64,000 nucleotides of DNA, from contig MGRG01000012.1 in assembly GCA_001798075.1 (NCBI GenBank), positions 91,852 through 155,851 of the forward strand, written 5' to 3'. Positions 30,284 through 63,332 of this stretch are shown one piece after another. Numbering within the stretch: position 1 is the first letter of the stretch; every line of letters begins with the position of its first letter. The notes under the pieces are model-generated. The model searched no databases. It was not told the origin of the DNA and saw only the letters and a list, made by a program, of their open reading frames with translations. The translations under genes were made by a program, and so were the position numbers. This DNA comes from Deltaproteobacteria bacterium RIFCSPHIGHO2_01_FULL_43_49 (lineage in GTDB: Bacteria > UBA10199 > SPLOWO2-01-44-7).

Positions 30284-30383
30284 TGCGAAAGGCGTGCCAA
30301 AATGAAAGGCTTTAGTTTTCAATAGGTTAGATTTTTTGGGGGTGCTGCAACTGACGAAATATGAACAGGTGCCGACGGATTTT

Positions 30384-30412
30384 TACCACCAGGTACCTGG
30401 TACCTGGTGGTA
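30384..30412. repeat. REP-like palindrome (TACCACCAGGTACCTGGTACCTGGTGGTA)
   Basis: Near-perfect palindrome sharing the GGTACC(W)GGTACC core. Confidence 0.8.
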
Positions 30413-41023: not shown

Positions 41024-41062
41024 GGTGAGAAAGTGATGGACAGGACCCGTCACTTTCTCACC
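41024..41062. repeat. 16-bp-stem hairpin between the SpoIID-like gene and queA
   Basis: GGTGAGAAAGTGATGG / CCGTCACTTTCTCACC with loop ACAGGAC; no adjacent U-tract on either strand. Loop resembles the CAGGACCC motif of the covarying element. Confidence 0.6.
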
Positions 41063-42211: not shown

Positions 42212-42300
42212 CTTGGTGAGTGGGTGGCCCGGAGTGTTTGTTGTGGGGTTTAGTTAGGGGCCCCCACAAAAACACGGAGGGACAGGCCCTACTCACCAAG
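42212..42300 (+). repeat. palindromic structured element, copy 1
   Basis: Conserved core TGGGTGGCCCGGAGTGTTTG.TGTGGGGTTTAGTTAGGGGCCCCCACA.AAACACGGAGGG.CAGG shared with 60460-60546; outer stem CTTGGTGAGT / ACTCACCAAG is complementary. Confidence 0.65.
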
Positions 42301-42305: not shown

Positions 42306-42335
42306 GAAGCAACATTTTTGGGGATTTGCCGATAA
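42306..42335 (+). promoter_or_regulatory. conserved 30-bp box (GAAGCAACATTTTTGGGGATTTGCCGATAA), candidate ECF-type promoter or operator
   Basis: 27 of 30 positions identical to 46416-46445; AAC at the -35-like position and CGA about 17 nt downstream. Confidence 0.35.
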
Positions 42336-44613: not shown

Positions 44614-44643
44614 ATGTATTGATGTTGCCGGCTTGGCTACCTG

Positions 44644-44775
44644 GCGATGAGGGCGCCGAAAGTACGTGATATTTTTTGGGTCGGCCCAAAAAATTCGCTC
44701 GACTCTCGCCCCGCCAGTCTTTTATCCCGATAAGGTGTGGCGGGGCTGCGAGACGACTTTCGTCCCCCTCATCGC
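44644..44775. repeat. GC-rich compound palindrome between the UDG and phospholipase-C-like genes
   Basis: 20-bp outer inverted repeat (GCGATGAGGGCGCCGAAAGT / ACTTTCGTCCCCCTCATCGC) enclosing hairpin TTTTTTGGG-TCGG-CCCAAAAAA and a second imperfect inverted repeat. Confidence 0.5.
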
Positions 44776-44809
44776 CACGCCACGCCGGCAACAGTCAATA
44801 ACGAATGAA

Positions 44810-46243: not shown

Positions 46244-46415
46244 TTCAAAGAGGGCAAATCACAATAACTTATGAAAAGCCATGAAATTTTAAAATACATC
46301 GGATTTGGAACATAATGCTTTAAAACTTAGACATTCCGAACTGGTTTTGAATAAATTCTATTTATTTTTCAATGAGTTACCAATAAAATTTCTGGCCCAT
46401 TTTTTGTATGCTTTT

Positions 46416-46445
46416 GAAGCAACTTTTTTGAGGATTTGCCGAAAA
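46416..46445 (+). promoter_or_regulatory. conserved 30-bp box copy 2 (GAAGCAACTTTTTTGAGGATTTGCCGAAAA), candidate promoter of the four-gene operon
   Basis: 27 of 30 identical to 42306-42335; ends about 20 nt before the operon start codon, followed by RBS AGGAGAGG. Confidence 0.35.
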
Positions 46446-46465
46446 CAATTAGGAGAGGTTTTTTA

Positions 46466-48046
46466 ATGGCTGAGAAGTGTCAATTAATTAGTAAATTATC
46501 AGTGTCACCCTCCATACTGCTCGGTAGTTTTCTTTATGATATCAGCAAGTTAGGTGGAAATCCTGGGGAGCTAGACACCTGTGACCTAAAGGTTTTCCAA
46601 AAGGAATTGGGTATTTCTTTGCCCCAAAAAGCATTTCTCGACAAATTTGGAAAAGGGGATTCGTTTAAACTCATTGAAGCCTCTGAATTTCTTTATAATC
46701 AGTATTTATATGCCCCCAACAATAAATATTATGCGTTTTACCCCAAATATTTCAGCAATCAGACCCATGCGGATCTCGCAGAAGTGGCTCTTCGTGACCT
46801 AAAAACGACCCTGGAACCTATCGTCGAAGTAGGAGTCCTCAAAAAAATTCCTATCTACGAGCGCATCTTGAAAGAACCGGCCCTGGCAGAATGGCTTTCT
46901 GTTGATGAAAAAGAAAAAATTGGAGCAGACATTGCAAAAATTCGTGAACTTTTTGAAGAAAAGAACTGGAAAGACCTCTACCCCCGCATGGACACTTTTG
47001 AAGTATCTCTCCCTGATTTGTACGAGACGATTAGCCAACGAGCTCAGGATAACGTTAAATTTTGGGAAAGGGCTGTTGTTGCAACGGAAGTTGTTCACAA
47101 TGTGTTATTTATCGGGGCCGGTGTTGCAGTGGGAATCGTTGCTGGCCCTGTGGCAGCTGTTGGTGCGACACTGGCATTCGGTTTATCTTCCCTCGCCTCC
47201 GAAGAAACTGCCAAAGCTATTTCACAAGATGACTATACATGGCAAAATGCTTTGAAATCTTTTGGCTATCACGCACCGTTTGATATTATCAAAAGTGCCG
47301 CTTTCCTATTTCCGCCACTCAAGGCTGCAACCATCTTTGTGGGAGCCACTTTTGTGGAAGTTGCGGCAGACCCATTTGGAGAACCGAAACCTGTTGTTGA
47401 CCGTTTGATTGATGGAGGTTTTTCAGCTCTGGTTGCAGCGGCCACTTTTTTCGTTGGGAAAAAAGCCGGCGAAAAACTGGGGCCTTATTTTGCAAAATAT
47501 TTTAGAAGAGCCATCCAGCCAGTTCCGGAGTCACCTCAACTTGTCAGACCAACAGTTGTTGAAACTCGAACGGCTACTTCTCCCTCGCCACCTGTTGAAC
47601 CGCCTCCTCCAAAAATGGAAGTGGAGCCTGCACCGCCACCCCCCACCCCCAAACCAAAAAGGGTCGAAGCCAGACCCAAAAATGGTGGCCCTAATGGAGC
47701 ATCGCATTCAGAGAAGGTCTTGCACACCATCAAGAAAACACGATTTGCAGAAGATTGTTTTGAAAAGCTCACACCGTTGGTTAAAGGAAAAATGGAGGAG
47801 TTTGTTGCAACACTCGTTAATAAATTAAATTTCGGAGTTCCTATTGCAAAAATTGCTAATGTCATGCGGAACAAGGATTTCGCCGGTGTTTGGGAAGGAC
47901 GTTTCATGTCTGCTAGCAATGCGAGAGTCTATTTTAAAATCACCGATGATCCCAATGGTTCCAAAATAGTTGAGATTCTCGGTTATTCTTTAGGAGAAGC
48001 CGATCGCATTGCTATTTTACAGCATTTTGCTGGTGGGAGGCATTAA
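46466..48046 (+). CDS. operon gene 1: membrane-type protein with Gly/Ala-rich hydrophobic segments, Pro-rich linker and RelE/ParE-like C-terminal domain
   Basis: ATG 46466 with AGGAGAGG RBS; hydrophobic segments (VLFIGAGVAVGIVAGPVAAVGATLAFGL; FSALVAAATFFVG); linker SPSPPVEPPPPKMEVEPAPPPPTPKPK; C-terminus AGVWEGRFMSASNARVYFKITDDPNGSKIVEILGYS resembles the RelE/ParE toxin pattern. Confidence 0.6.
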   Translation: MAEKCQLISKLSVSPSILLGSFLYDISKLGGNPGELDTCDLKVFQKELGISLPQKAFLDKFGKGDSFKLIEASEFLYNQYLYAPNNKYYAFYPKYFSNQTHADLAEVALRDLKTTLEPIVEVGVLKKIPIYERILKEPALAEWLSVDEKEKIGADIAKIRELFEEKNWKDLYPRMDTFEVSLPDLYETISQRAQDNVKFWERAVVATEVVHNVLFIGAGVAVGIVAGPVAAVGATLAFGLSSLASEETAKAISQDDYTWQNALKSFGYHAPFDIIKSAAFLFPPLKAATIFVGATFVEVAADPFGEPKPVVDRLIDGGFSALVAAATFFVGKKAGEKLGPYFAKYFRRAIQPVPESPQLVRPTVVETRTATSPSPPVEPPPPKMEVEPAPPPPTPKPKRVEARPKNGGPNGASHSEKVLHTIKKTRFAEDCFEKLTPLVKGKMEEFVATLVNKLNFGVPIAKIANVMRNKDFAGVWEGRFMSASNARVYFKITDDPNGSKIVEILGYSLGEADRIAILQHFAGGRH

Positions 48047-50418
48047 TGACCACTATTAATTTTGGCTTTATTGAAGCAGCCATCACTGCAGCCCAGGCAG
48101 CCCAAGCGGCTTCTAATAGGGCTGAATTAGATGCCGCATTGGAAAAATTGGGGAGGGCGATCCATCCCCTGGATACCTTTGCTGATGGCAATCTATCCCC
48201 CTTGGTGGAAAGGCTGACGAGTGGTAGAAGAGCTGTCACTGAAGCAGAACTGAATCAAGTTATCAGGACTATCAACGATGCCGGGGATAAATACCGGGCA
48301 AGTTCAGGCACAAAGGAATCAAAAGCCAGCAGTGCGCACACAGGGCACGGTGTTCATGGAAGCCCCAATCCTTATCTTATTCAAGTAGGTCAGTCTAAAA
48401 CTTTTTCCCCGCGCCCTAACCAAGCCTACATCGCACGGAAAGCAGTGAGCCATTTTAGAGAAGAACACAGAGGTTTTTTTCGCCTCGATACAGGTGAGGG
48501 TAAAACACCAACATACGGATTCATCATTCAAGAACTTCGCAAAGAACTTCCCGATGAATACCAAGAGGCACTTGTTGTCATGGGTTGCCATCAAGCAGAA
48601 CCCGCTCGCAAATTGGCAGAGACGATGAAACATATGTTTCGTGATGAAAAAATCATGTTTTTAGAGGGAGGTATTGAAGCAGAAGATTTTAAAAGAGTTA
48701 CTTTTGTGGTGGGGACCTATCAACAACTAGCACAAAAATCGAGTATTGACGTTTTGAAAGAATGGGCTGGTCAAAAAAGAATTCTTTTTGTCTTGGATGA
48801 AGCGGACATGGTTGTTTTCAAAGGTATTGCAGAAGATGAACATCGAATGGCTACTTGGATTCGTCTCTTGATCGACTTTGGAGTCTTTACACAACATGGG
48901 CATTATCTTGCCAGAACACGGCATCGACTGTTGGGGGCCTCTGCAACCCTTGATCGCCCTGATGAAATTTCTCTCTCAACTGTTTGGGGTCCTGGAAATG
49001 TTTTCTATCATACACCGATGGCAGAGGGGGTTCGGCGCGGCACTCTTGTGCCCGTGGTTGGTCATGTCTTAGAAATGGATGTTCCAGAAAAAGAAAAACA
49101 TCTCTTCAGGGATTTTACGAAGATTGTGGATGGTAAGATTGTGGTTGATAAAACAAAAGTGATGTCTGCCTGCGGCAGTGATCATGCTGTTAAAACATCG
49201 GTTCGAGCTGTGATCGATCATATGAAGATGAAGATTGGTGCTGGAACGACAAAGGGTGAAGCAGTGCGGCGTGGGATCGGTTATGCCATGGACACCACTG
49301 CCTTGGAAAAACACATGCGCTGGCAGCAAGAATTATTTGGGTTGGTAGAGGTTATTTTCCAAATTTATCAAGGCTTGGCTGCATCAAAACCAATGCATGT
49401 TGATACAATCCTCGCTCATCTTGGTGGTCTGGAGAAACTAGATGCGTTTGGTCAAACTTTAAAACGGTTTCTCTATGCTAGAGAATGGAAAACGGTGGAA
49501 TCCCTTTACAGAAAGGCGGTCAGTTCTTTAAAAAATGGGAGAAAAGAAGGTATTTCGGAATTGTTCACTACTCTCTATTCTATTTTGAATGTTGATGTTC
49601 GCAGAATCAAAGGAAGACCTTTGGTGGCCACGGCTGTCTGGCAAAGTATGGACATGGATCGTGAAGGCAAAAAAATTCCTCGTGAGGCTCGTCGCACTCA
49701 ATATCTCAACAAATTTGGTGATCGGGAACTAACGATGAAGGGCTTCAATGCTGGGGTGATCGACATGCTCTGGAGCATTGGGATGTTGGACAGAGGTTTC
49801 GACGAACCGATGGCAAGCTTAATTGTTGATAATGCCCCTAGTTCATCGAGAAGAGAAGTGGTGCAAAGGGCAGGCCGTATCATGCGACCACCCGACCCCA
49901 AAAATCCTAAAGATCATAGTCAAAAACCAGAATCTATTTATATTACACTGACACCCAATTTGGAAGCCCACCATCTCGATGTGGCCAGAAAAGATTTAGC
50001 CCGAGTTTTTGGTACCGAAGTAGATCCTGAGCTCAATATCATTAAGATTCGCCCTACCAAAGAAGGGGATTTTGAGTGGCGTACTCCCGATCCTGTTCAA
50101 CTTGATTTGGGAGGTGATAAAAAAGTCCATTTAGTGTTGGTTGGGGCTAGAACCGTGGAGGCATTGGTTCATTTTTTAAAAGGACGTTATGGGAAAGATT
50201 ATGATCCCGAAATTTTGGCCTTCGATGCCGGTGTTGGGGTTGAAGAAGTTGATGATTTATTGCGGGCCATTCGTTTTCCCAAGGAATCCAGATTACGTGC
50301 CTTTTTAAAAAATTGGCGTGCCGATGATGCAACAATCCACCAAATCATGGCAATCTATCACTCCGATCTTGCCGACATGAAAACGGTCTATGGTAACGCC
50401 TGGAGGATTGTGCAATGA
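48046..50418 (+). CDS. operon gene 2: SF2 helicase / ResIII-type ATPase
   Basis: Motif I LDTGEGKT (about 48490), motif II LDEADM (about 48796), motif III SAT (about 48934), motif VI QRAGRIMRP (about 49861). Start overlaps the gene 1 stop by 1 nt. Confidence 0.75.
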   Translation: MTTINFGFIEAAITAAQAAQAASNRAELDAALEKLGRAIHPLDTFADGNLSPLVERLTSGRRAVTEAELNQVIRTINDAGDKYRASSGTKESKASSAHTGHGVHGSPNPYLIQVGQSKTFSPRPNQAYIARKAVSHFREEHRGFFRLDTGEGKTPTYGFIIQELRKELPDEYQEALVVMGCHQAEPARKLAETMKHMFRDEKIMFLEGGIEAEDFKRVTFVVGTYQQLAQKSSIDVLKEWAGQKRILFVLDEADMVVFKGIAEDEHRMATWIRLLIDFGVFTQHGHYLARTRHRLLGASATLDRPDEISLSTVWGPGNVFYHTPMAEGVRRGTLVPVVGHVLEMDVPEKEKHLFRDFTKIVDGKIVVDKTKVMSACGSDHAVKTSVRAVIDHMKMKIGAGTTKGEAVRRGIGYAMDTTALEKHMRWQQELFGLVEVIFQIYQGLAASKPMHVDTILAHLGGLEKLDAFGQTLKRFLYAREWKTVESLYRKAVSSLKNGRKEGISELFTTLYSILNVDVRRIKGRPLVATAVWQSMDMDREGKKIPREARRTQYLNKFGDRELTMKGFNAGVIDMLWSIGMLDRGFDEPMASLIVDNAPSSSRREVVQRAGRIMRPPDPKNPKDHSQKPESIYITLTPNLEAHHLDVARKDLARVFGTEVDPELNIIKIRPTKEGDFEWRTPDPVQLDLGGDKKVHLVLVGARTVEALVHFLKGRYGKDYDPEILAFDAGVGVEEVDDLLRAIRFPKESRLRAFLKNWRADDATIHQIMAIYHSDLADMKTVYGNAWRIVQ

Positions 50419-51725
50419 GTGTAAGTGTTGTCACTCCTGCAGGATATGTTACCGGCCTACTTGGTAATCTGGAGACCCTAAGTGTTGCCGGTCAAGAATC
50501 AGACATTGCAGAGGTCTTAAACGATTTATTTCCTCAAGTAGATCGTCTTGGTAATGCTGAACTTGGACAGCGTTTAAAAAAAGTAGCAACCGCGTTGCAA
50601 AATGGTGATTATAAAAGAACTCAATGGTTACAATCTTCATTATATCGTGAACTCACTGATCTTCAAGCAGCACTCCAAAGTGGTCAAGCTATTGAAGAGG
50701 CATTGCAAGCAAGACAAGCTGCTCAAGCGTTAAAAAAAATAGAAGGACCAGGCGGCGGGCGATTTACCTCTTCCATTACTGCAAGACCAGTTCAAAGAGT
50801 TTCTGTTGGACCACCACCAGTCATTGAATGGGAGAAGTTTGGATCTAGAAGGTATCCTGCACCGCTCCCCCCAAGTGAAGAGGTGAATACAGCGGGCAGA
50901 CGATTGGCTTATGTTGTCAGTTACGTTGCCGGAATGGCAGGTCATGGGGAATTCACGGCTGATACAGAAGATTTTTATAGCATCAGTTCTGAGATGCGCA
51001 GACGTATCGAAAAAGCGTTATTCGTTCCCAAAGCATTGGGCCAGTTTCCAACACGGGATGCAAGATCGATTATTATCAAAGCCCATCAATTAGAGCCGCT
51101 TTATGGAAGATTAGTTCAAGAACTTCTGATCCAATCTATTTTTGAATCACAGGGTTGGTCGTTGGGCGTTCCACTCTCCGATGCCCCGTGGGATCTCTCT
51201 TTTTTGTATGCCTTGAGACGCTATGGTGCGATGCAGTTGTTGGCCTCCGAAGAGAAAGCAAAAGAAGTGTCGGAAGACAAAGCGCTCATTCGCGTTGTGC
51301 AAGGCAAAGTCAGTTTGGAAGCGGTGAACTGGCATCCAGGCAAAACCCGTCGCGAAGTTTTTGAGCCTTGGTTACAAGGGATAGCCAGCAGAAATGGTAA
51401 CAATGAAAAACTTTTAGAGAGACAACGCAAATATATTGGCGATGGAATTTTGCGTGCAACAAATTGGCAGCCTCCTCGCAATGGCGCTGGTTGGGAGCCG
51501 CAACTCCAATGGATGGTCAGGCGCTGGATTGCCCATTTTCATTTTGGTGCTTTGCCGGCCCGGGGACTTCCATTTAAAACCGATGTGATCATTCGTTTTG
51601 CAATGGCGAAACACCCAACAAAACTAGATTTAACTTTTGCGAGAGCTTTGTTGGCCATGATGCGTGATTATTATTCAAAGGCAGAATTACAAGCCATGGG
51701 GGATTTTATACCGAGGGATAAATGA
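50415..51725 (+). CDS. operon gene 3: hypothetical protein (436 aa)
   Basis: 4-nt overlap (ATGA) with the helicase stop; no recognisable motif. Confidence 0.6.
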   Translation: MSVSVVTPAGYVTGLLGNLETLSVAGQESDIAEVLNDLFPQVDRLGNAELGQRLKKVATALQNGDYKRTQWLQSSLYRELTDLQAALQSGQAIEEALQARQAAQALKKIEGPGGGRFTSSITARPVQRVSVGPPPVIEWEKFGSRRYPAPLPPSEEVNTAGRRLAYVVSYVAGMAGHGEFTADTEDFYSISSEMRRRIEKALFVPKALGQFPTRDARSIIIKAHQLEPLYGRLVQELLIQSIFESQGWSLGVPLSDAPWDLSFLYALRRYGAMQLLASEEKAKEVSEDKALIRVVQGKVSLEAVNWHPGKTRREVFEPWLQGIASRNGNNEKLLERQRKYIGDGILRATNWQPPRNGAGWEPQLQWMVRRWIAHFHFGALPARGLPFKTDVIIRFAMAKHPTKLDLTFARALLAMMRDYYSKAELQAMGDFIPRDK

Positions 51726-54700
51726 GTATTGTTATCTCAAGGGGTTTAGCAGCACTTCAGTCTCAGATGGCAGAAGGTCTTGCCCGACTAACAGCTGACA
51801 ATGCCGCACTTTTTCAACCAGATTCTTCGTCTTCTTATGAAAACCCTGCTTTGTTAGCTGCGCAACGTTACACAAAAGAAGAACCAAGGAAAATTTCGCC
51901 CGGCATTTTCCTTCACGACATGCACGGGGCCTTGAAAAAAGTTGCCGGTTCTCGTTTCGTTGCTAAAACTCCAGAGAATGAAGACAAAGCATTTTTAAGG
52001 GCTATCGTGGGTGGTCTTTCCCTCTTTTTGGGGAAAATGGACGCGCAAAGTGAAACAGAGATTGCAGGAATGGTAGATCAAGTAATCTCGCAGATTGCAG
52101 ACCCTGCCATTCAAAAGCTTATTTTGGGTGCCGGCATTGCATTGCCAACTTCTTCCACAACGTCTGTAGCTGTTTCAGCTCCTTTAACGGTCTTGCCACC
52201 TGTTGTAGCCGCACCACAACCTCCTGCTCCAACTGTTGCTGCTCCTATCACGACAACTCTTACCCCTTTTGACTATCATCCAAACAGTGAAGAGAGGTTG
52301 GATGCTGAGTTTGAATATCGTCTCGCGAATGTTCACCAGCGCATTCAAGATGCAAATATTTCCTGGCCCTATGATTTTGTCAGATGGTGTCGCTCCCTTT
52401 ATCTTTTGGCAGGTGAGTTGCCAAATGGAGATGCAGCAAGGGTACGTGGAAATATCACCCGTGGTTTAAGAAGAATCAACGAGTTAGCCTCCATCAGTGT
52501 CGAAGATATTCGTCGCCTGTTAGGTCCTTCTGCGATGGCAGTGGGTCGTTACCCCGAAGGAATTTCGCAAGATTGGCCACGAGATATATCCAATGATTTT
52601 GGTTCTGCCATTATTGCTGTCCACGATGTCGGTGAAACTGTCATTGCCAACAAAGCAGCCCTCCTCTGGAAGGCAAGCACTGGCTTAGAAAATCAAGATG
52701 AGATTAGAGGTGATTTGGTTTCGATCCTGCGTCGTTTCGAAATAGCTTTGTTATCGGGAAGAGAAACAGATCATGAGGAAATAGAAAAAGCGCTTGATGA
52801 AATTGCGTTGAAAATTCCGGAAGCCAAACGCCCGGAAATGTTCTTAAAGAAAGAAACAGTACCACAGCCTTCACCCATCCCGTTAGAACCCATGTCGCAA
52901 GCAGAGTGGGTACAAAAAAGTTTGGATTTTTTGGTTTATGAAAAATCAAAATGGGGAAGTATGGAAGGAGAACTCTCCAATCAATTAGAGCATCTTTTTA
53001 AATTATTGAAAGTCGAAGAGGCTTTAGCACCACGTGCACCAGAGCTGTTGGGATTGGCATTTCAACTGATGTTATCTTATCGCCAGATGGTGGGGGTATC
53101 CGGAATAGAAGCTTTGGCATTGGGTAAAGATCCCAGCCTACCGATCAGTTTTGAAGACAGGGCTAAAGCCTTTGACATGATGAAGGCTGCCCACAACCAG
53201 CTCGATCTTCTTCAAGAGTGGGGTGATGCCTATAATAAAGATCCAAAAGCTTATCAACCGTTGTTCGGTGAAAATGGTCTTGCCGAAATAGTCTCTCGCT
53301 ACATCGTTCATGCTCGAGGAGGATCCCAAAACCCACTTGAAGAAGCGAGTGGAAATTTTGTTCAAGCACACCCTGAGTTGAAACTTTCAACTGCTATGGC
53401 CCGCAGGTTACTATCCTATTTTGTTGGGCTAACAGATGGAACTTTTAACGAGGCTTTCTTACAAGAAGTGTTAGGGGCCAAACCTAAGGCTCAAGAAGCG
53501 GCTGGACCAGAGCTTGATTTAGAAAATACCCCATTTTTGGATGTTGATCCAAATAAATACACTCCCTATGGGCGCGTTTTTGGAAAAGTTGTTCTGGATG
53601 GAGGAGTCATCCGAGTAGGCGGTGGCAAAAATAGACCTGGGATCTTTTTTGGGATTTATTTGACAACCTTAGAAAAGATTTACCGAAAATACCGTGAACA
53701 AGTTCGCACATCCGGTAGCAGTAGTTTCGAGTCGGCCTATACATTGGCCGTGAAGCAGGAAAAATATCAAGAAAGATATAGAAAAGACTATGAAAAATTG
53801 TTTGGGGATCTTCTTAGATTGCTGGGTGAAAATAAGGATATGGCCGATTTGGTGGAAACAGCAATTTTGTCTGGTAAGACTCAGTTAAAGGTACCTGAAA
53901 AGCAAGCAATACCTACAAGTGGCGGCCCTCCCATGGAACGACCTGTGGAAGAGGCGCCTACTGCAGCGCTAGCGCCAACACCAGCTCCAGTTTCAGTACC
54001 ACCATCGGTTGAAGTATCGAGACCAGCTGCAACAAGGGTTGATGAAGCCGTCTTTGCCGGTGCCGCACTCGTTTCACCCGATGCTCCTCCTGCCGAAGCT
54101 AACCCCTTTATCGAAGCAGCTGCAATAGTATCAGAGTTTGTTCCACCCCCAGCAGAGGTAGTTGTATCTTCAGGAGTTGCCGTAGTCGAAGTGCCACCAC
54201 CTGTTGAAACAGCGACAATTCCAGCGATCGAAGAAGAAATATTAATTGTAGATGAAGTAGAGGTAGAAACATTTCCAGCGATTCTAGCCCCCTATATTAC
54301 TAAATGGTCCCTGGGTGAAGTTGAGAAAAAAGTATTGCAAGATATGTGCGCGGTAACTTCACCAGAAGCTGTTTTGAAAGCTCTGGATAATATTGAACAA
54401 AACAGTTGGGAGAGTGAGGAGCGAAAAAGAAAGATTCTGACAGAATATGCAAGGGCTTTAGAACTTGGAAGAATAACAGAGAGAGGTAAAAAAAGAGTTG
54501 TAGAGCTTCTGGCCTCTAAGGAAAATTTTGGGAGGGTGAGACTTCTCCTATCTGTTGCCGCTGCAAAACCGACCAGTCTGGTTTTGGATCAGATTATTCC
54601 AGACCCCATTCAGTTGGGCAAAAAGGGGGGGCGATATCTAGATATTGACTTTAAATCTTACCCTCCTGTAGCTGTGGTTCGGCCTGCAATCACTCTTGCA

Positions 54701-57145
54701 GAAGGATTATACGAAGAAATAGCCGTCATGCCGAGTGGGCGTTCCGTATTGATTAGAGGACCTTTTAAAGGGGATGCCATTGATATCGGAATAGATCACG
54801 GGCAGCTCCAGAAAGGGATCGGTGGTCTTTTAGGTGAATTGGCAAGGGCTCAAGGGGCCATTGAAAGTGGCGCGCGAACCTCTCTCTTGCTCCTCGTTTT
54901 TAACGAAAATGGCATGACACCGCGTGCCCGAAAATACTTTTTTAGCCAGCACCCTCAAGGCACTTTGATTGAATGGTATGGAAACACTTTTAGTCGGTGG
55001 TCTTTAGAAAAATATGACGATGAAATTATGCTGCAGGAAACCCGTTTTGATAGAGAAGGGAATAAAATTTCTGAAAAACTTAATTCTATTGAAACATTCG
55101 AAGGAGAAGTAGAAGTTCATTTTGTTACAGCCAATGATCGCAATCCCCACACGGAACGCCTGATAGAAAAACCAACCACGCGAGCAATTGAAGATTTAAG
55201 GGCGATGGGAGAATCCAAAGAAGCGATTCGTTTGAAAGTTGTTCGGGATGCGGCCATTAACGCCGTCGGTTTTCTCAATCCCAATCACCCCGATGCAGAT
55301 AAAGTCATCGAAGTGGCTAAGAAGTTTGGTCAATCTCGTCTTAGTAAGAGACAAATTGTTGAATTGAAAGAGGAGCTGGATGCAGTTGTCATTGAAATAG
55401 AACATCGCTTTGACTCCACAATACCTCCTAAAGCTGTCGAATTGGCAGCCCTTGTGGGTGTAGAAAAATTAACTCAGTTGCTGACAATAAAAGGAATCTC
55501 TTCTGAAAATGTCGATGAATTGATCCATCACCTCTTGGTTTTAAAAACCAAGTTCAATGGAGAAGTCATTGTCAAAATAGTCGATCAATTGTTGGAAGTG
55601 AGTACAAAAAATCTCGCCCACTTTACAACACTTCTCAACCGCCTTGCTCAACTAGAAAGACTAGTAAGACAACGGGGTTTAAACATCACCGATATCACTT
55701 TAAAACCAGAAACCCTTTATGGTGGATGGGCCCTGACTTTGGATGGAAAGGTCATCTTGATCGGTTCTACTAAGGGGGAACCTTTTCATGTCCCATTCCC
55801 ATTGGGCGGGACAATGAAACAGGCTGAAGGGATTGCCGGAGCTTTAGCTCCCAATTTCGAAAGGGTAGAAGATGCGATTTTAGAAGGGAATGTGAGTGGC
55901 TTGCTTTTAATGTTGGTTGGAGAAGATGGAATTACCGAGCAAGGTAGAGACTCACTTTGGACAACCTTTGGATCCGATGCAGAAGTCTGGGTTCTCAAAA
56001 TAACCAATGATCAACAGGCCGATCATTATATCTTCAAAAAGAATAAAGAGGGCCCTTTGGCCGAATCGCTGGGAGAAGAAATTTATGAGGTGATCTCCTT
56101 TGCTCGTGAAGAAGAAGAAATTAAAATTGAAAAACTGGAACGAAAAGAAAGCCGTCAGGTCGTCAGTCCACTTTTGCTTGCAAAAAGAATTCTCGGTGTT
56201 GTGAAGCCCAAACCTTCTCCAGAGGGTGCACCAGCAAAGAAGCGTTGGGAACACATTGACGCGGATTTTGCAAAAATCTTTGCTGATCATGAGGTTACTG
56301 CACAACAAATTTGGGGACCTTTGAGCGAAATTGTGAATGATGAACGTGTTTTGAAAAAAGGAGATGCATTTATTGATTTGATGGAGTTTGCCGATCAGTT
56401 AAATGGAACCTTTGAAGCTCATTTAATGCCAATGAGTGCCTTGGCAACGGGAATTCAAATTGGAGAGCCCGTTTTTCCGGGAATAGACTTGCTCAAATGG
56501 AGAGATTTAATCGAAACTTCGACATTAGGAATCCAAGAAGCACTGTTTGATCTTAGTGACACAGAAGAAGAGGGAATCGCAAAAATCGTAAAGATTCCCC
56601 AACATCTGCATGAGTTTCATCTTTTGCTTCATCAGATTTTGATGGTTGAACTAAACGGTTATCGCAACCTCCTTAATCGGTTAGACAGTGTGAAGGCTTC
56701 AAGCGACATCCCGCCCGATTTGGCAAGACAAAAGGAATTGATTGAAACACTTCGAGGGCGTGCTGCAGATTTGGGAAAATACCTGGGGGCCGATTTCTTT
56801 AAAGAGCTCAATAAGATTCGGACCATCATGCAAAACAGAATCAATTACTTTAATGAAGTGTTGAAACCCAAGATTTTTGAATTTCAAACGAGGGATGATT
56901 TGGAGCTTCCTTCTTCGAATCCAATAACATCCGACCTCTATGCTTTTGTGGATAAATATGGTTTTAAACGGGGAAGGGAGGCAGAGCATGGAGTTCTCTT
57001 TGTAAATCCAGCTACAGGAATAACCGTAAATCTGCCCTACGACGATAAAGGTCTTGATCCACGCACGATGAAAAACTCCAGATCGGATGCTATAAAAGCT
57101 GTCGAAGAATCTTTGCGTAAAGAAGGCCGCATGCCCCCTGCTTAG
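51722..57145 (+). CDS. operon gene 4: giant hypothetical protein (1,807 aa) with Pro/Ala/Val-rich linkers and an internally duplicated ~95-aa module
   Basis: 4-nt overlap with gene 3; low-complexity linker at about 53910-54250; paired modules at about 54730-54990 and 55740-56000 share GxxxLLxLVxExGxT; no catalytic motif recognised. Confidence 0.65.
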   Translation: MSIVISRGLAALQSQMAEGLARLTADNAALFQPDSSSSYENPALLAAQRYTKEEPRKISPGIFLHDMHGALKKVAGSRFVAKTPENEDKAFLRAIVGGLSLFLGKMDAQSETEIAGMVDQVISQIADPAIQKLILGAGIALPTSSTTSVAVSAPLTVLPPVVAAPQPPAPTVAAPITTTLTPFDYHPNSEERLDAEFEYRLANVHQRIQDANISWPYDFVRWCRSLYLLAGELPNGDAARVRGNITRGLRRINELASISVEDIRRLLGPSAMAVGRYPEGISQDWPRDISNDFGSAIIAVHDVGETVIANKAALLWKASTGLENQDEIRGDLVSILRRFEIALLSGRETDHEEIEKALDEIALKIPEAKRPEMFLKKETVPQPSPIPLEPMSQAEWVQKSLDFLVYEKSKWGSMEGELSNQLEHLFKLLKVEEALAPRAPELLGLAFQLMLSYRQMVGVSGIEALALGKDPSLPISFEDRAKAFDMMKAAHNQLDLLQEWGDAYNKDPKAYQPLFGENGLAEIVSRYIVHARGGSQNPLEEASGNFVQAHPELKLSTAMARRLLSYFVGLTDGTFNEAFLQEVLGAKPKAQEAAGPELDLENTPFLDVDPNKYTPYGRVFGKVVLDGGVIRVGGGKNRPGIFFGIYLTTLEKIYRKYREQVRTSGSSSFESAYTLAVKQEKYQERYRKDYEKLFGDLLRLLGENKDMADLVETAILSGKTQLKVPEKQAIPTSGGPPMERPVEEAPTAALAPTPAPVSVPPSVEVSRPAATRVDEAVFAGAALVSPDAPPAEANPFIEAAAIVSEFVPPPAEVVVSSGVAVVEVPPPVETATIPAIEEEILIVDEVEVETFPAILAPYITKWSLGEVEKKVLQDMCAVTSPEAVLKALDNIEQNSWESEERKRKILTEYARALELGRITERGKKRVVELLASKENFGRVRLLLSVAAAKPTSLVLDQIIPDPIQLGKKGGRYLDIDFKSYPPVAVVRPAITLAEGLYEEIAVMPSGRSVLIRGPFKGDAIDIGIDHGQLQKGIGGLLGELARAQGAIESGARTSLLLLVFNENGMTPRARKYFFSQHPQGTLIEWYGNTFSRWSLEKYDDEIMLQETRFDREGNKISEKLNSIETFEGEVEVHFVTANDRNPHTERLIEKPTTRAIEDLRAMGESKEAIRLKVVRDAAINAVGFLNPNHPDADKVIEVAKKFGQSRLSKRQIVELKEELDAVVIEIEHRFDSTIPPKAVELAALVGVEKLTQLLTIKGISSENVDELIHHLLVLKTKFNGEVIVKIVDQLLEVSTKNLAHFTTLLNRLAQLERLVRQRGLNITDITLKPETLYGGWALTLDGKVILIGSTKGEPFHVPFPLGGTMKQAEGIAGALAPNFERVEDAILEGNVSGLLLMLVGEDGITEQGRDSLWTTFGSDAEVWVLKITNDQQADHYIFKKNKEGPLAESLGEEIYEVISFAREEEEIKIEKLERKESRQVVSPLLLAKRILGVVKPKPSPEGAPAKKRWEHIDADFAKIFADHEVTAQQIWGPLSEIVNDERVLKKGDAFIDLMEFADQLNGTFEAHLMPMSALATGIQIGEPVFPGIDLLKWRDLIETSTLGIQEALFDLSDTEEEGIAKIVKIPQHLHEFHLLLHQILMVELNGYRNLLNRLDSVKASSDIPPDLARQKELIETLRGRAADLGKYLGADFFKELNKIRTIMQNRINYFNEVLKPKIFEFQTRDDLELPSSNPITSDLYAFVDKYGFKRGREAEHGVLFVNPATGITVNLPYDDKGLDPRTMKNSRSDAIKAVEESLRKEGRMPPA

Positions 57146-57573
57146 GCCTTTTCCCTTTTGGCGAGGTAGTCCAACACAGATTTGGCAAAGAGTTCGAAGT
57201 CGCTTAGATGTTGCTTAAGAACGCTATAAATTTCTTTGTCATCCGTTTCCCAATAAAGATGCACCAAGCGGTTTCTCATTTTTGCCATTTTTCGCAATTT
57301 TGTGAGAAAGCCCTCGGTGACCACTCCATTTTCCACGAGTACTTTAAAGCTGTCGGCATAGTCCTTTGGCGCTCTAAAGCCAAATCTGGAGATGAGATGG
57401 TTTGTCAAATCAAGACATGTCTCTAAAGCATATTGGAGATTGAGGCGAGCGCTGTCTTTTTTCATCGCATCTTTTAGGAAATCAGCCTCAGAAAATGCGC
57501 CGAGTTCTTTCAACTTTAAAACATATTGACGAAGCCGATCTACGAGCATTGTTACTTTTTTTATATCAACCAT
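57142..57573 (-). CDS. hepT: HepT-like (DUF86) toxin
   Basis: Rx4HxY motif (RNRLVHLY) near the C-terminus; overlaps the upstream MNT gene by 8 nt. Confidence 0.8.
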   Translation of the reverse strand: MVDIKKVTMLVDRLRQYVLKLKELGAFSEADFLKDAMKKDSARLNLQYALETCLDLTNHLISRFGFRAPKDYADSFKVLVENGVVTEGFLTKLRKMAKMRNRLVHLYWETDDKEIYSVLKQHLSDFELFAKSVLDYLAKREKA

Positions 57574-58015
57574 GCGTCAACCCTTGTTCGCGAATCGTTC
57601 GCAAACGTTCCGAGCAATAGTTATCGATAAAAAATTTGAAATCAAAATAATGTTTGCGTGTTCGCTCTTCATAATTTGCTCGTATAGTATCCGAAATTGC
57701 GTAGAGTAATTTGCCGTCTGTGATTACTTTTCCTTGAAAATCAAGAGGGGCATCATTGATAATTCGAACATCAAACTCAAACGTTGGAAAGGAACCTTCC
57801 AAAAGGTCTTCGATCTCAATTTCAAAATCCCATCGATTCTTTCCAAAGTGTTTTGTATTAATAACCAAAGCAATATCGACATCACTAAGGGGCGTGGAGT
57901 TGCCTGTTGCGTAGGAACCATGCAAATAAACAAGTTCCAAAAAGGAATTTTTTTTTGCTAATTCTCGGAAGGCCCTCCCCAAATTTTCTTTATCCTGAGG
58001 TTTCATGACACTCAT
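57566..58015 (-). CDS. mntA: MNT-type nucleotidyltransferase antitoxin
   Basis: Nucleotidyltransferase motif LHGSYATGNSTPLSDVDIALV immediately upstream of hepT. Confidence 0.8.
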   Translation of the reverse strand: MSVMKPQDKENLGRAFRELAKKNSFLELVYLHGSYATGNSTPLSDVDIALVINTKHFGKNRWDFEIEIEDLLEGSFPTFEFDVRIINDAPLDFQGKVITDGKLLYAISDTIRANYEERTRKHYFDFKFFIDNYCSERLRTIREQGLTHG

Positions 58016-58065
58016 TATAGCGAATATGCTTAAAGTTTCAACCCATTTTCATTTTCAACAATACA

Positions 58066-59759: not shown

Positions 59760-60305
59760 TTATCCTCTCTTCAAAAAACTGACCAAGGTTTGTCCATATT
59801 TTCTTTCGTCCGTCAAGCGCAAGCCCTCTATTGCTCCAATTGGTTCCTTGGGATGGTGCTCTACTATAATAATTGTTTCATCGTGCAGAAGAAAGCTATT
59901 TGCCAGTTTGTTTAATGTTTTTTTGACGAAACGTTTTTCATAAGGGGGGTCGACAAAGATAAGATCGAATTTTTTTTGTTTTTTAGAAAGAATAGCGATT
60001 GTCTTTGCCGCCGACAGGTAAAAGACATTGGCTCTATCGGCAAAGCCACATAGATCAATATTTTTGCCGATCAATTTTAAAGACTCTTTGGAATCATCCG
60101 CAAAAACAGCTTCTTTAGCCCCTCGGCTTAAAGCCTCAATCCCCATAGAACCGGTCCCTGCAAAAAGATCCAAAACAGTCCAATCGGTGACATCAAAAAG
60201 GATATTGAAAACCGCCTCTTTGACCTGATCGAGTACGGGCCTGATGAGATTGGATTTAGGGCTGGCAAGTCGCCTCCCTTTGGCTTCACCTGCAATCACA
60301 CGCAT
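59760..60305 (-). CDS. rsmD: 16S rRNA (guanine966-N2)-methyltransferase
   Basis: SAM-binding LDLFAGTGSMGIEALSRGA and DPPY motif. Confidence 0.85.
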   Translation of the reverse strand: MRVIAGEAKGRRLASPKSNLIRPVLDQVKEAVFNILFDVTDWTVLDLFAGTGSMGIEALSRGAKEAVFADDSKESLKLIGKNIDLCGFADRANVFYLSAAKTIAILSKKQKKFDLIFVDPPYEKRFVKKTLNKLANSFLLHDETIIIVEHHPKEPIGAIEGLRLTDERKYGQTLVSFLKRG

Positions 60306-60322
60306 TTATTTACCTCCGTTTT

Positions 60323-60411
60323 GTTGAAAATGACGGGCTCCGGGTCGGCTTGCTGCACGCCCTCCCGACAGATCGGGCTGACAGCTGCGCCGACCACCCG
60401 TCATTTTCAAC
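60323..60411. repeat. GC-rich palindromic element in the rsmD leader region
   Basis: Perfect 14-bp inverted repeat GTTGAAAATGACGG / CCGTCATTTTCAAC separated by a GC-rich 61 bp with internal complementarity; lies 18 nt upstream of the rsmD start, adjacent to its GGAGG RBS. Confidence 0.55.
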
Positions 60412-60459
60412 TTCACATTTTTCGGAGCACCTATGCGAAAACACCCTATCTTAATGATT

Positions 60460-60546
60460 GGAGTGAATGGGTGGCCCGGAGTGTTTGCTGTGGGGTTTAG
60501 TTAGGGGCCCCCACAGAAACACGGAGGGGCAGGACCCGTTCACTCC
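60460..60546 (+). repeat. palindromic structured element, copy 2
   Basis: Same core as 42212-42300 with a different but still complementary outer stem (GGAGTGAA / TTCACTCC). Confidence 0.65.
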
Positions 60547-60651
60547 ACTCAATATTATTAAGGTGTTTTCGCAAAGGTCGGAGAAGTCTATGCATAGAAC
60601 TTGCATTAATTCAAAAGACAAGCTATGGCGAGCGAATAATAAGGAGGATTC

Positions 60652-61470
60652 ATGAAACGCAAATTTTGGCATTGGGCTTTTTTATTAGCTTTGACCCTGT
60701 CACCCGTTCTGGCAGAGGCTGCCAAGACAACCTATGTCTACACCGACAGACGCTTTCATTTCGTGAAGCGTGTTGAGATGGACAAAGAGGAACTCAAAGA
60801 ACGTCAAGTGAACCATCCTTACACCTTCACCGATTTGCAGCTCAGAGATATGTTGGCAGGTGTTAAATTTAGCAGACAGCTTGTTTTCAAAAAAGAGGTT
60901 CAAGAAGATGCTGTTTTCAACCAGGCAAATTTGGATTTTTTAGTGCCACACCTTGTTCAGGCTTTTAAAGAATCGCAACCCAACGAAGAAATTGTTTTTG
61001 CTTTTATCACTCATCGATCAAAGTTTGTTGTGAGAGACGACCAGCTAACGATTGTGCGTTCGTGGGTGGAAGGGAATCAGCTTCATATGGAATTTCGCAA
61101 GCTGATGGCCAAGGTTGATGTGACGAACTACGACAAGTTGGGCGATGTGAATCAGGCGATGAATCGGGCGCAAGGCTTGCGCGTTGCTTTGGAATTAACA
61201 CCGGGTCAGCAGTATGGCAGAAGCACCGATGAGGTTTTGTTGACCATTCCTTCTGCTTCTGCTGTGGCGAGTGCTCTTGAAAAACCAAAAGAAGAAAAGG
61301 CCAAAGAAGAGAAGAAAACGGCCAAGGTTGAGAAAAGGACGACAGTTTCTGAGCCGGTTAGTGGTTCTGCTGCCGATCGGTTGAAACAACTAGATCAACT
61401 CAAAAAACAGGGGCTTATTAGTAAGGAAGAATACCAACAAAAGCGCCAGGAAATCTTGAATCAGCTGTAG
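60652..61470 (+). CDS. secreted hypothetical protein with SHOCT-like C-terminus
   Basis: Signal peptide (LALTLSPVLAEA); C-terminal LDQLKKQGLISKEEYQQKRQEIL is SHOCT-like; AAGGAGG RBS. Confidence 0.55.
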   Translation: MKRKFWHWAFLLALTLSPVLAEAAKTTYVYTDRRFHFVKRVEMDKEELKERQVNHPYTFTDLQLRDMLAGVKFSRQLVFKKEVQEDAVFNQANLDFLVPHLVQAFKESQPNEEIVFAFITHRSKFVVRDDQLTIVRSWVEGNQLHMEFRKLMAKVDVTNYDKLGDVNQAMNRAQGLRVALELTPGQQYGRSTDEVLLTIPSASAVASALEKPKEEKAKEEKKTAKVEKRTTVSEPVSGSAADRLKQLDQLKKQGLISKEEYQQKRQEILNQL

Positions 61471-61483
61471 GCGAAAAAAATAG

Positions 61484-61505
61484 CGGGTCCTGCCCCTCCG
61501 TGTTT
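61484..61505 (-). repeat. inverted partial copy of the palindromic element core
   Basis: CGGGTCCTGCCCCTCCGTGTTT is the reverse complement of the 3' part of copy 2 (AAACACGGAGGGGCAGGACCCG) and is followed by a T-run, just after the SHOCT gene stop. Confidence 0.6.
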
Positions 61506-61568
61506 TTTTGTTCAGAAGCAACTTTTTTGGCGCCCCGCCGAAGAACCCATCAGAAAGGTCTTATTTCC

Positions 61569-63332
61569 ATGAATGCACCTTTAACGAGTTTATTTCTAAA
61601 TCCAGGCATGGTTGCCAATCTTGGTGTGCCTAACATTTTGTCGGGGTTGCCCCCAACAGTGGAACTGGGTTCGGTAGTTGAGGGTTTTGGCCAAGCCATT
61701 GAACATGCTGCTCCAAATTATTTTACTGATTGGGCGGAGTCTGCTCGACGTCTACAAGAGCTATTACAAAGAGGTGGAACTCCTGAAAAATTTCAACGCC
61801 TTCAAAGTTCTTTATCAGGCATCATTGACGAACTGGGGGAAGACGAATTGAACGCCGTTTTGGCCAAAACCGGCTGGAAACCTTCAGAACAATTTTTAAA
61901 AGATCGTTCCCCCGTGAAAATTGAGACGACGATGGCTTATGTAGATGCAACTGCAGGTGTTGTCATTCATGAACTGGCCGAACTTGTTGCTGCGGAGAGT
62001 GTCAGCCGACCAGGAAGTAAGACTGAGGCAACGTATGACTCGGCAGAGTGGATCAAGGATCGCATGACCGATTTAGGTTTTAAGGATATCATCCTGCTCG
62101 AGGCGGAGAACAGTAATCCCAGTGTTTTTGGCCAAATTGTCGTCGATCCCAAAGCACCAACTGTTCTTTTCTATGCCCATCATGATGTGAAACCCCCTGG
62201 AGGGGAGTGGAAACAGGTAGATCCTTTTAAAGCAGAAGTGCACAATGGTAGATTATTTGGAAGAGGGGCAGCCGATGACAAAGCAGGTATTATGGCTATT
62301 TTGTCTGCTGTGCAGGCGTATCAAGATGCCGGTTTAAAACTCCCTGTTAACGTCGCTGTACTGTTTGAAGGGGAAGAAGAAATCGGCTCTCCACATTTAG
62401 ATAAAATTCTTGAAGTGTTAAAAACCAGGGTTCAAGATTTTCAACCCAATGTTGTGGTGACTTGCGATTCCATGAATATGAAGGTTGGACTCCCCACTGT
62501 AATAGCAAGCACTCGTGGGATTGCCGATCTGATGGTGACCGTCCAGTCGGTAGCTCAAGGTTCCCACGCTGGTCGCAATAGTTATGCCATGGATGCTTAT
62601 CAAGCCTTCTCAGCATTGATCTATAATATGATAGGCTCTTACGGAGAACTTTATGTTTGGGGATTGACCGATTGTGCCCCCGAAATTCCAATAAGTTTTC
62701 GAAAAAGTTTAGATAAGCTTGCAGAACTTATTACATTGGATGAATTGCGTGATGCAGCTCACATGTCGCATGATGCCAATTTTTTAGTCCCCCGAGAAGA
62801 ACCGACTGTCCAAGATGTTTTGGGTCATACCTGGCGTGGTTACGCGATGAAGATTTTAGCAGTGCAAGGAGCTCAAGATATCGAAAACGCGGCTGGTATG
62901 ATTGTTCCTAAAGTTAAAACGTTAATTCAATTGCGAATTCCTCCCCGTGTTGATTCAGTCCAAGCGGCACTAATTTTAATTAAAACTTTACAAGAAAAAG
63001 CACCCAAGGGGGTACGTGTTGATATTGTTGTGGCGGGGGAAATCGTTGATCCTTGGGAGACAAAAATTGATGGCCCTGCTGCCAATGCTTTACTCAGTGC
63101 TTTAGACATGGGTTATGGAAGAGAAGCGGTCTTGGGTGGTTCGGGTGGGGGGATCGGTTTTTTAAGTATTATTGGAAAACATTTTCCAGAGGCAACCGTG
63201 TTACCGATTGGAACAGAAGATCCTCTTTCCAATGCGCACGGTCCCAACGAGAGTGTAGCCATAGAAAATGTTATAGGGACAGCCCGCTCGATTGTCGCCT
63301 TTCTTTATAATATCTCGAGGCGTTTAGGGTAG
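61569..63332 (+). CDS. M20-family metallopeptidase (dipeptidase-like) with N-terminal extension
   Basis: M20 motifs (FYAHHDVKPPG, GRGAADDKAG, FEGEEEIGS). Start taken at internal ATG; uncertain. Confidence 0.75.
   Translation: MNAPLTSLFLNPGMVANLGVPNILSGLPPTVELGSVVEGFGQAIEHAAPNYFTDWAESARRLQELLQRGGTPEKFQRLQSSLSGIIDELGEDELNAVLAKTGWKPSEQFLKDRSPVKIETTMAYVDATAGVVIHELAELVAAESVSRPGSKTEATYDSAEWIKDRMTDLGFKDIILLEAENSNPSVFGQIVVDPKAPTVLFYAHHDVKPPGGEWKQVDPFKAEVHNGRLFGRGAADDKAGIMAILSAVQAYQDAGLKLPVNVAVLFEGEEEIGSPHLDKILEVLKTRVQDFQPNVVVTCDSMNMKVGLPTVIASTRGIADLMVTVQSVAQGSHAGRNSYAMDAYQAFSALIYNMIGSYGELYVWGLTDCAPEIPISFRKSLDKLAELITLDELRDAAHMSHDANFLVPREEPTVQDVLGHTWRGYAMKILAVQGAQDIENAAGMIVPKVKTLIQLRIPPRVDSVQAALILIKTLQEKAPKGVRVDIVVAGEIVDPWETKIDGPAANALLSALDMGYGREAVLGGSGGGIGFLSIIGKHFPEATVLPIGTEDPLSNAHGPNESVAIENVIGTARSIVAFLYNISRRLG

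Follow-up and report, generated by a model that had tools for sequence, protein, structure and literature searches.

Copies of a high-copy intergenic hairpin repeat family probably surround a resident SHOCT-domain gene in an uncultured 'Deltaproteobacteria' genome

Introduction

Repetitive extragenic palindromic (REP) sequences of enterobacteria and pseudomonads are high-copy imperfect palindromes of 20-40 nt that lie mostly after the 3' ends of genes, keep their hairpins through compensatory changes and join other motifs in the mosaics known as bacterial interspersed mosaic elements (BIME). Two inverted arms can form a longer hairpin, the REP doublet forming hairpin (REPIN), of which half copies ('singlets') are decay products (Bertels & Rainey 2011, PMC3116915; Nunvar et al. 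2010, PMC2817692), and what defines the gene of a REP-associated tyrosine transposase (RAYT) is that copies of its own REP flank it (PMC2817692). Bacterial miniature inverted-repeat transposable elements (MITE) such as Correia/NEMIS, ERIC/IRU and RUP (PMC3184786) are non-coding, foldable, intergenic repeats of ~100-170 nt with conserved inverted termini, while autonomous insertion sequences (IS) such as IS1397/ISKpn1, IS621 and ISPpu9/10 insert into REPs (PMC1525189). Here we analyzed a stretch of 64,000 nt (the window; all positions without a locus name refer to it) from contig MGRG01000012.1 of Deltaproteobacteria bacterium RIFCSPHIGHO2_01_FULL_43_49, in which a gene for a SHOCT-domain protein is bracketed by sequences of a hairpin repeat with a constant centre and a variable stem base.

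The sequence-only reading of this stretch had described a second copy of a palindromic element upstream of the SHOCT gene, a 22-nt inverted fragment of it with a T-run after the stop codon, and a related hairpin further away, and had proposed either a terminator-type reuse of the element or a small mobilised unit. We compared these sequences with each other, with further copies in metagenome contigs and with the syntenic DNA of related genomes.

Results

The bracketed gene (60652-61470, plus strand) encodes a protein of 272 aa whose N-terminus is predicted to be signal-peptide-like and whose C-terminus holds a SHOCT domain (PF09851, 30.4 bits). We consider it likely that intact, half and core-deleted copies of one high-copy intergenic hairpin family lie around this ordinary resident gene. 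The gene is indeed bounded by inverted copies, of which the one upstream is intact and the one downstream is partial and inverted. The upstream one, copy 2 (60421-60586, plus strand), is an intact composite member of the family (type b, see below), and its identification is confirmed by a repeat search of the window, in which 60463-60543 pairs with 42216-42296 of copy 1 at 90% identity over 81 nt. Its core (60470-60536) reads GGTGGCCC...CAGGACC and is enclosed by an inner outer-stem segment (TTGGAGTGAATG / CGTTCACTCCA), a second stem (GCGAAAACACC / GGTGTTTTCGC) and conserved flanks (TCGGAGCACC on the left, GGTCGGAGAAG on the right). The whole forms a long imperfect hairpin at 60429-60578 with an RNA minimum free energy (MFE) of -83.4 kcal/mol (z -7.7), and the copy scores 79 bits with nhmmer. 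Five further loci (L018, L040, L067, L068 and L069) resemble copy 2 at 79-82% identity along ~166 nt, a homology that spans 60421-60586.

Downstream, the SHOCT stop codon (TAG, 61468-61470) is followed by a half copy (61471-61511, minus strand, ~40 nt) that starts 1 nt past the stop and consists of the right arm of the core and the right outer arm. The 22-mer AACACGGAGGGGCAGGACCCGT of the copy 2 right arm matches the minus strand at 61483-61504 with one mismatch, where 100 shuffles give an expectation of 0, so that the inverted fragment stands, with its position shifted by one base from the earlier one. Ungapped extension lengthens the pair to 27 nt with 93% complementarity (25/27; 60512-60538 versus 61484-61510), and the family alignment adds a remnant of the outer arm, with which the fragment covers 61471-61511. 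The minus-strand sequence of the half copy is ACAAAAAAACACGGAGGGGCAGGACCC-GCTATTTTTTTCGCC, that is, the right arm of the core followed by a type-a right outer arm, and it aligns with the full copies in L019 and L023, the outer arm CGCTATTTTTTTCGCC included. It ends where the apical stem would start, its partial nhmmer match covers model positions 50-72, and its orientation is the family's majority orientation relative to the upstream gene. We thus read the 'inverted fragment' as half of a separate copy and not as a free-standing 22-mer. The T-run noted after it is present as 7 T (61503-61509) and is mostly the element's own (its ...GTGTTTTTGTGGGG arm) with two extra T; the element arm behind the T7 run is GTGTTTTTG.

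The half-copy region is unstructured, with an MFE of -14.4 kcal/mol compared to -14.6 kcal/mol in shuffles (z 0.08) and a z of -0.14 for a larger region. The sole pairing at the half copy is A7/U7 around a 23-nt loop, and a terminator scan gave no match there. Since the half copy lacks a fold, it is unlikely to be a terminator, and it is most likely inert. The proposed terminator-type reuse is hence not supported for the fragment, while it has some basis at the level of the family, where 37/57 copies lie close to the end of a reading frame and 25/57 combine an A-run and a T-run (see below). A degenerate left arm of the fragment in 61515-61550 was considered and rejected, as the similarity there is that of a recurrent promoter motif and the region is unfolded.

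Copy 1 (42213-42299, plus strand; core 42223-42289) is intact (nhmmer 83 bits), carries the locus-specific outer stem TTGGTGAGTG / TACTCACCAA and folds at -57.6 kcal/mol (z -4.95). It occupies the divergent spoIID/GGDEF spacer and is closely followed by a sigma-28-like promoter motif that is conserved (42306-42335); at this site the relative in L013 keeps the promoter motif and is devoid of the element. The hairpin at 41024-41062 (plus strand), between spoIID and queA, had rightly been recognized as related, as GGACAGGACCC from the 3' end of the core recurs in it. This is all that it retains of the core, and it serves as the loop of a stem of 13-16 bp (z ~ -5) of the type-a outer-stem kind (GGTGAGAAAGTGA / GTCACTTTCTCACC), whose GGTGAGAAAGTG/CACTTTCTCACC matches the outer stem of the full copy in L054. 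The alignment thus argues for a third copy with a deleted core. Such 'core-less' outer stems, which keep only ..CAGGACCC, occur here and in L054 (2613), a second right-half copy is present in L049, and internally deleted cores are found in L031 and L048. Altogether ~6 decayed forms were identified versus 57 intact copies.

The census of the family is based on the right-arm 20-mer pattern AAACACGGAGGGRCAGGNCC, which we scanned in the GTDB representatives (one genome per species) and in JGI metagenome contigs. The metagenome contigs contain 58 loci, concentrated on few contigs, which are 100-480 kb long. Of six proteins taken from these contigs, all six have an identical counterpart in 'Deltaproteobacteria bacterium RIFCSPLOWO2_01_44_7', a metagenome-assembled genome (MAG) from the Rifle aquifer, and we therefore regard the metagenome loci as other parts of the same genome; the SHOCT protein is likewise identical to a protein of this MAG. 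A nhmmer profile of the core gave 70 full-length hits, 57 of them non-redundant, and nine lie in flanks without an exact 20-mer. This sample comprises ~0.38 Mb around the seed loci plus the window, and 57 is a lower bound for the number of copies; the census implies a density of about one copy per 30-45 kb. Further copies are thus abundant (at least 57), and the doubt raised by the sequence-only reading itself, that the 22-nt match might be a chance occurrence, is dispelled.

Outside this genome the element was not encountered. The GTDB representatives, among which the source genome is not included, hold four matches to the 20-mer, and the two inspected (L003 and L004) are chance matches in coding sequence. 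The element was found neither in plasmid or phage collections by BLAST nor in viral contigs by the scan, and 95 kb of DNA from the syntenic loci of related species lack it as well. For the window regions and 10 loci, Rfam 15 returned no relevant match at the gathering score or at E<=10.

The comparison of all copies reveals a core of 67 nt, GGTGGCCCGGAGTGTTTGYYGTGGGGTTTWGTTAGGGGCCCCCACRRAAACACGGAGGGRCAGGNCC, in which only ~7 of the 67 positions vary. Two of the variable positions covary as TT/AA, CT/AG or TC/GA, and these core haplotypes are independent of the outer-stem types. The flanks directly outside the core are complementary for 10-23 nt, with a sequence that differs from locus to locus. 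In many copies (type a) they approximate GGTGAAAAAGTAGTG-core-CACTACTTTTTCACC, with an A-run, a T-run and the triplets TGA and TAG. About a quarter of the copies, copy 2 included, are of type b, TTGGAGCGAAGG-core-CCGAAGCTCCAA within a larger conserved unit of ~166 nt, and other copies, e.g. those in L021, L027, L028 and L065, possess unrelated perfect stems of 9-13 bp. Flank positions 1-13 are paired in 38-56 of the 57 copies if G-T is counted and in 38-54 by Watson-Crick pairing alone. In an ungapped alignment of 46 copies, assessed against the named structure, 258 cells are changed on both sides, compared to 101 +/- 9 in shuffles and at most 89 with a slid partner.

Across the copies, the flanks also display a stepwise series of T-A, T-G and C-G pairs. 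At flank positions 1-2 beside the core, mismatches on the GGGTGG-first strand are G-T/T-G in 18 cases versus A-C in one, a pattern that hints at strand-specific selection on a single-stranded form. The strand carrying these wobbles is usually antisense to the neighbouring gene, so that the G-T wobbles give no clear indication of selection at the RNA level. The hairpin fold is stable in both orientations, and in 25 of the 57 copies an A-run and a T-run stand on the two sides of the long hairpin.

According to a stop-to-stop analysis of open reading frames (ORFs), the copies are mainly located between ORFs; a crude ORF caller put 14 of the 57 inside an ORF, which are presumably spurious or edge-open ORFs. 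The spacers that hold copies may be convergent, tandem or divergent, and both orientations are represented. For 37 of the 57 intact copies, an ORF with 100 codons or more ends within 120 nt, mostly at 2-30 nt, and the stop codon is often inside the outer stem of such stop-adjacent copies. With convergent pairs excluded, and relative to the upstream gene, the GGGTGG-first strand is antisense in 23 cases and sense in 6 (binomial p ~0.002), and a test of the replication strand found no bias of orientation relative to the local GC skew (19:14). Target-site duplications were not found, as the length distribution of direct repeats is about that of a shuffled-partner control, and none flank the bracketed unit either.

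We then compared the surroundings of the SHOCT gene with those in four related genomes (L006/L013, L008 and L009/L012 loci). They encode SHOCT proteins with 43-56% identity at the same rsmD-adjacent position, within the conserved order Tgt/QueA/SpoIID<- ->GGDEF, UDG, PLPC, flavoprotein, aminotransferase, CoaD, RsmD<- ->SHOCT, M24 peptidase. The spacers of these relatives are free of the element (42-75 nt between rsmD and SHOCT, 50-100 nt between spoIID and GGDEF), and the C-terminus of the SHOCT protein (..ILNQL) is conserved together with its stop codon. Since the relatives keep the divergent rsmD/SHOCT arrangement with short, element-free spacers, the gene is old, resident and syntenic, and the repeats are insertions that arrived independently. 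The comparison thereby refutes the small mobilised unit of the sequence-only reading. Homologues of the SHOCT protein are seen only in related 'Deltaproteobacteria' MAGs, and outside the domain the protein resembles only the Leptospira LA_1326/LA_4305 lipoprotein family, and weakly so (NCBIfam, E 3e-4, well short of the cut-off).

On its 3' side, the SHOCT gene directly adjoins the M24 gene in L008 and L012. In the window, an M20 peptidase gene (61569-63332) follows, which together with its promoter is absent from this position in the relatives, and the half copy sits exactly at the junction; by this comparison the M20 gene and its promoter motif are lineage-specific. The SHOCT/M24 junction is variable overall, with the M20 peptidase gene here (61471-63332), a methylase/AAA_15/DUF4276 defence-like island in L013 (10865-16030) and nothing in L008/L012.

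On its 5' side, the spacer between rsmD (59760-60305, minus strand) and the SHOCT gene measures 346 nt and contains two large hairpins. Adjoining copy 2 lies hairpin A (60323-60411, plus strand), in which a different core, core-2, is set in an outer stem of main-family style (GTTGAAAATGACGGG / CCCGTCATTTTCAAC). Hairpin A represents a second dispersed family with relatives in L032 (159-248), L046 (~4975-5067) and L025; its termini GGGTGG.../...GGAGCCC are similar to those of the main family, and in L034 its outer stem surrounds a main-family copy. A 13-nt match to hairpin A at 58049-58061 was rejected as a chance match in AT-rich sequence. Hairpin A and copy 2 form a mosaic block of 290 nt (60306-60595), which separates the rsmD start codon from the conserved SHOCT upstream segment: the short ancestral rsmD-SHOCT spacer aligns with 60590-60651, i.e. 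downstream of copy 2, where the conserved segment CTTG(A/C)ATTAATT.AAAA is located. The tetranucleotide GCAT borders the mosaic on both sides (60302-60305, overlapping the rsmD start codon, and 60592-60595), and this pair could be a 4-nt duplication or chance.

Such mosaics are not confined to the SHOCT locus. Copies are nested in one another, with mosaics at 60306-60595, in L032 (159-248) and in L034 (9024-9154). At least two other cores, hairpin A (60323-60411) and one in L017, have the same termini and outer-stem style, and the termini GGGTGG...CAGGACCC are common to at least three different cores. In total, at least six palindromic repeat families are present in the genome. Because several other intergenic hairpins of the window are also dispersed repeats, the genome carries BIME-like mosaics of palindromic repeats. 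Four more strongly folding intergenic segments (44624-44795, 11747-11805, 18211-18330 and 27256-27375) have relatives at other loci, and the palindrome at 11747 (AAAAGGTAGCGTCTACCTTTT) frequently adjoins type-b copies.

The window also contains a gene for a RAYT-like Y1 transposase (29556-30206, minus strand; OGQ04402.1), with a match to PF01797 and a score of 54 bits for NF047646 (cut-off 80). It is flanked by a different REP, a 29-nt palindrome of the GGTACC type (TACCGCCAGGTACCWGGTACCTGGCGGTA), at 29514-29543, 30226-30282 (a tandem pair) and 30383-30412, and this REP is dispersed at five other loci (L028, L031, L034, L067 and L069). Judged by these different flanks, the hairpin family does not qualify as the REPIN partner of this gene. 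No RAYT gene was found beside any of the 57 copies, and in a search that fell short of the whole genome no second RAYT paralogue attributable to this MAG was seen. Likewise, no autonomous IS with matching ends was seen in ~0.44 Mb or in the plasmid, phage and viral collections. Cross-mobilisation of the family by the RAYT-like transposase is possible. On its own, the RAYT-like gene with its GGTACC REP (29514-30412) has the appearance of a classical REP/RAYT pair, here in a MAG from outside the Gammaproteobacteria.

At the far edge of the half copy and upstream of the M20 peptidase gene lies a sigma-28-like motif (61515-61544, plus strand), GAAGCAACTTTTTTG-N7-GCCGAAGA. It belongs to a recurrent motif, GCAACWTTTTTG-N7-GCCGAWA, which is found at 2065, 7005, 27240, 42309, 46419 and 61518, always on the plus strand (six matches in the window versus 0.24 expected), and also in L013 at ~4085-4115 and 10863-10890. 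Its downstream half equals the sigma-28/FliA -10 consensus GCCGATAA. The motif precedes the GGDEF, M20 peptidase and island genes, and its position in front of GGDEF is conserved in a relative. In L013 it comes straight after the SHOCT stop codon, which fits an insertion of the element between stop codon and promoter and its later truncation.

The motif at 46419 precedes a lineage-specific island (~46300-58030) that separates the flavoprotein gene from the aminotransferase gene; in the relatives these two genes are neighbours. The island holds four large ORFs on the plus strand (536, 790, 436 and 1807 aa) and a HepT/MNT toxin-antitoxin pair; for the ORFs of 436 and 1807 aa, the only two looked up, no Pfam hit is on record.

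Discussion

The arrangement around the SHOCT gene could have arisen in few steps. Copy 2 and the second hairpin repeat would have inserted into the divergent rsmD/SHOCT spacer, upstream of the conserved promoter-like segment, and a further, independent insertion would have taken place 1 nt past the SHOCT stop codon, oriented as is preferred in the family, and would later have lost its apex and its other arm in the usual decay of long palindromes. The near-identical cores, the restriction to one species, the decayed copies, the nesting and the lack of target duplications argue for a selfish element that is non-autonomous and of the REP/REPIN/MITE kind, which we infer to be propagated as a single-stranded hairpin without target duplication. 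Such an element would accumulate directly behind stop codons and within other hairpin repeats, and its intact A-run/hairpin/T-run copies would probably also act as bidirectional terminators or 3'-end stabilisers.

Several observations weigh against this explanation. Both intact copies of the window are located in divergent promoter regions and not at gene 3' ends. No empty/occupied pair of alleles was found among the 58 metagenome loci, and insertion was thus not seen directly. The one RAYT-like gene that turned up (29556-30206) has another REP at its flanks, and the family could be tied to no transposase. An invariant core with divergent paired flanks would also be expected from gene conversion or from selection on a functional RNA, and the strong covariation together with the orientation bias would also be expected of a functional RNA element in the 3' untranslated region (3'-UTR).

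These last points make a functional structured RNA, either a 3'-UTR stabiliser or terminator or a protein-binding RNA, the first alternative to be weighed; copy 2 and the fragment would then be cis-regulatory. It draws on the very strong covariation in the basal helix and three inner pairs, on a bias relative to the upstream gene (23:6) that is not seen relative to GC skew (19:14), on near-core mismatches that are G-T and not A-C (18:1) and on a fold that is stable in both orientations. Yet the strand that bears the G-T wobbles is in most cases antisense to the mRNA, and a family that is confined to one species and has near-identical cores is what a recent expansion of a repeat typically yields. 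The absence from the relatives' orthologous spacers and from Rfam, the occurrence in convergent, tandem and divergent spacers in both orientations, the mosaic nesting in other repeat families and the decayed copies likewise argue against it, and we hold it to be unlikely. Gene conversion could have kept the cores of old copies identical while the flanks drifted with compensation and no transposition is ongoing, as the invariant core and divergent flanks, the core haplotypes shuffled against the flank types and the stepwise T-A, T-G, C-G series would suggest. Perfect outer stems of 9-13 bp that are unlike the consensus (L021, L027, L028, L065) are, however, hard to obtain through drift, and relatives at 55-70% protein identity without any copy speak against a great age, so that only a small share of our confidence goes to this scenario.

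The remaining alternatives concern the bracketed gene itself. Were the half copy the intrinsic terminator of the SHOCT gene, with a remnant structure and U7 stopping transcription before the next promoter, its position 1 nt after the stop, its 7 T and the promoter-like motif just downstream would be readily accounted for, and intact members do resemble A-run/hairpin/T-run bidirectional terminators 2-30 nt past stop codons. But no stable hairpin precedes the T-run (z 0.08 and -0.14) and the terminator scan is empty there, which renders this function rather improbable. That the SHOCT gene and its flanks (~60512-61510) form a mobilised unit with 27-nt inverted repeats and a transposase acting in trans is suggested by the inverted pair of 93% complementarity that brackets the gene and by the Y1 RAYT-like transposase in the window. 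Four relatives, however, hold the gene in the same rsmD-adjacent slot without the element and with the ancestral C-terminus and stop, the left 'end' is one arm of a complete palindromic copy, this arm occurs at no fewer than 57 other loci and no direct repeats flank the unit; we give the mobilised unit hardly any credence. The complementarity of 25/27 nt between 60512-60538 and 61484-61510 could also mean that the fragment pairs with the right arm of copy 2 within one SHOCT transcript as a long-range regulation between the 5' and 3' sides. The likely promoter, in the conserved spacer segment, is downstream of copy 2, which probably places copy 2 outside the mRNA; the right arm of copy 2 is already paired in a hairpin of -83 kcal/mol, and every other genomic copy is equally complementary. 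Such a pairing is thus very improbable.

The selfish-element explanation, which we favour, has to account for flanks that are complementary at each locus and different between loci, and these cannot be the product of simple descent from a master copy. They may stem from insertion into pre-existing hairpins, from outward growth of the palindrome by intrastrand template switching or from core-homogenising gene conversion. Tentatively, and with considerable doubt, we suggest that the core integrates at the apex of existing stem-loops or builds its own basal stem by fold-back template switching, without target duplication and independently of the genome's RAYT/REP pair, and that it thereby seeds bidirectional terminators at stop codons, sometimes supplying the stop itself. 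If it is true that the family inserts into or builds hairpins, this adds to the few ways in which bacterial genomes gain terminator-like palindromes. It would also provide a test case of compensatory 'covariation' without a functional RNA and thus a caveat for the covariation-based discovery of non-coding RNAs in metagenomes. The bracketing of the SHOCT gene is best seen as coincidental: an abundant repeat inserted twice, independently, and one of the inserts decayed. Nothing points to a gene cassette or a special regulatory design around this gene.

When compared to the described systems, the family resembles bacterial MITEs in being a non-coding, foldable, intergenic repeat of similar size (~100-170 nt) with conserved inverted termini and in its ability to carry terminator-like or promoter-proximal signals. 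It differs from them in having no target-site duplication and no parent IS with the same ends among the sequences searched, and its flanks are inverted and not direct duplicates. With REPINs it shares the long hairpin of two inverted arms, the half copies as decay products, the missing target duplication and the presence of a single-copy RAYT-like Y1 transposase in the genome, whereas its arms are not small palindromes and the RAYT-like gene is flanked by a different 29-nt REP. The palindrome-targeting IS set a precedent for insertion into existing hairpins, which would explain the locus-specific complementary flanks and the nesting in other hairpin repeats. Those elements are, however, autonomous and carry transposase genes, while the insert here would be a non-coding hairpin of 67 nt whose flanks pair right up to the core and leave no loop bases over.

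As far as function is concerned, the A-run, strong hairpin and T-run at 2-30 nt past stop codons, often between convergent genes, are reminiscent of bidirectional intrinsic terminators, and it is plausible that intact copies act as such. In contrast to those terminators, the stem is ~40 bp long with bulges, one sequence is shared across loci and only 25/57 copies have both runs. There is also a likeness in genomic behaviour to REP and BIME sequences: the family is extragenic and high in copy number, consists of imperfect palindromes mostly after gene 3' ends, keeps its hairpin through compensatory changes and forms mosaics with other motifs (here hairpin A with copy 2, and the nests in L032 and L034). 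A GT(A/G)G 'head' stands beside the palindrome in 17/57 copies, resembling REPs such as GTAGGGTGGGC... (PMC2817692). The family departs from REP and BIME sequences in its host, an uncultured 'Deltaproteobacteria' MAG instead of enterobacteria and pseudomonads, in its unit, a hairpin of 67 nt (97-166 nt with stems) instead of 20-40 nt, and in the location of its conserved part, which is the centre, with the base of the stem as the variable part. The repeat family is previously undescribed, and what merits attention in it is only this architecture of a conserved apex on a locus-specific base.

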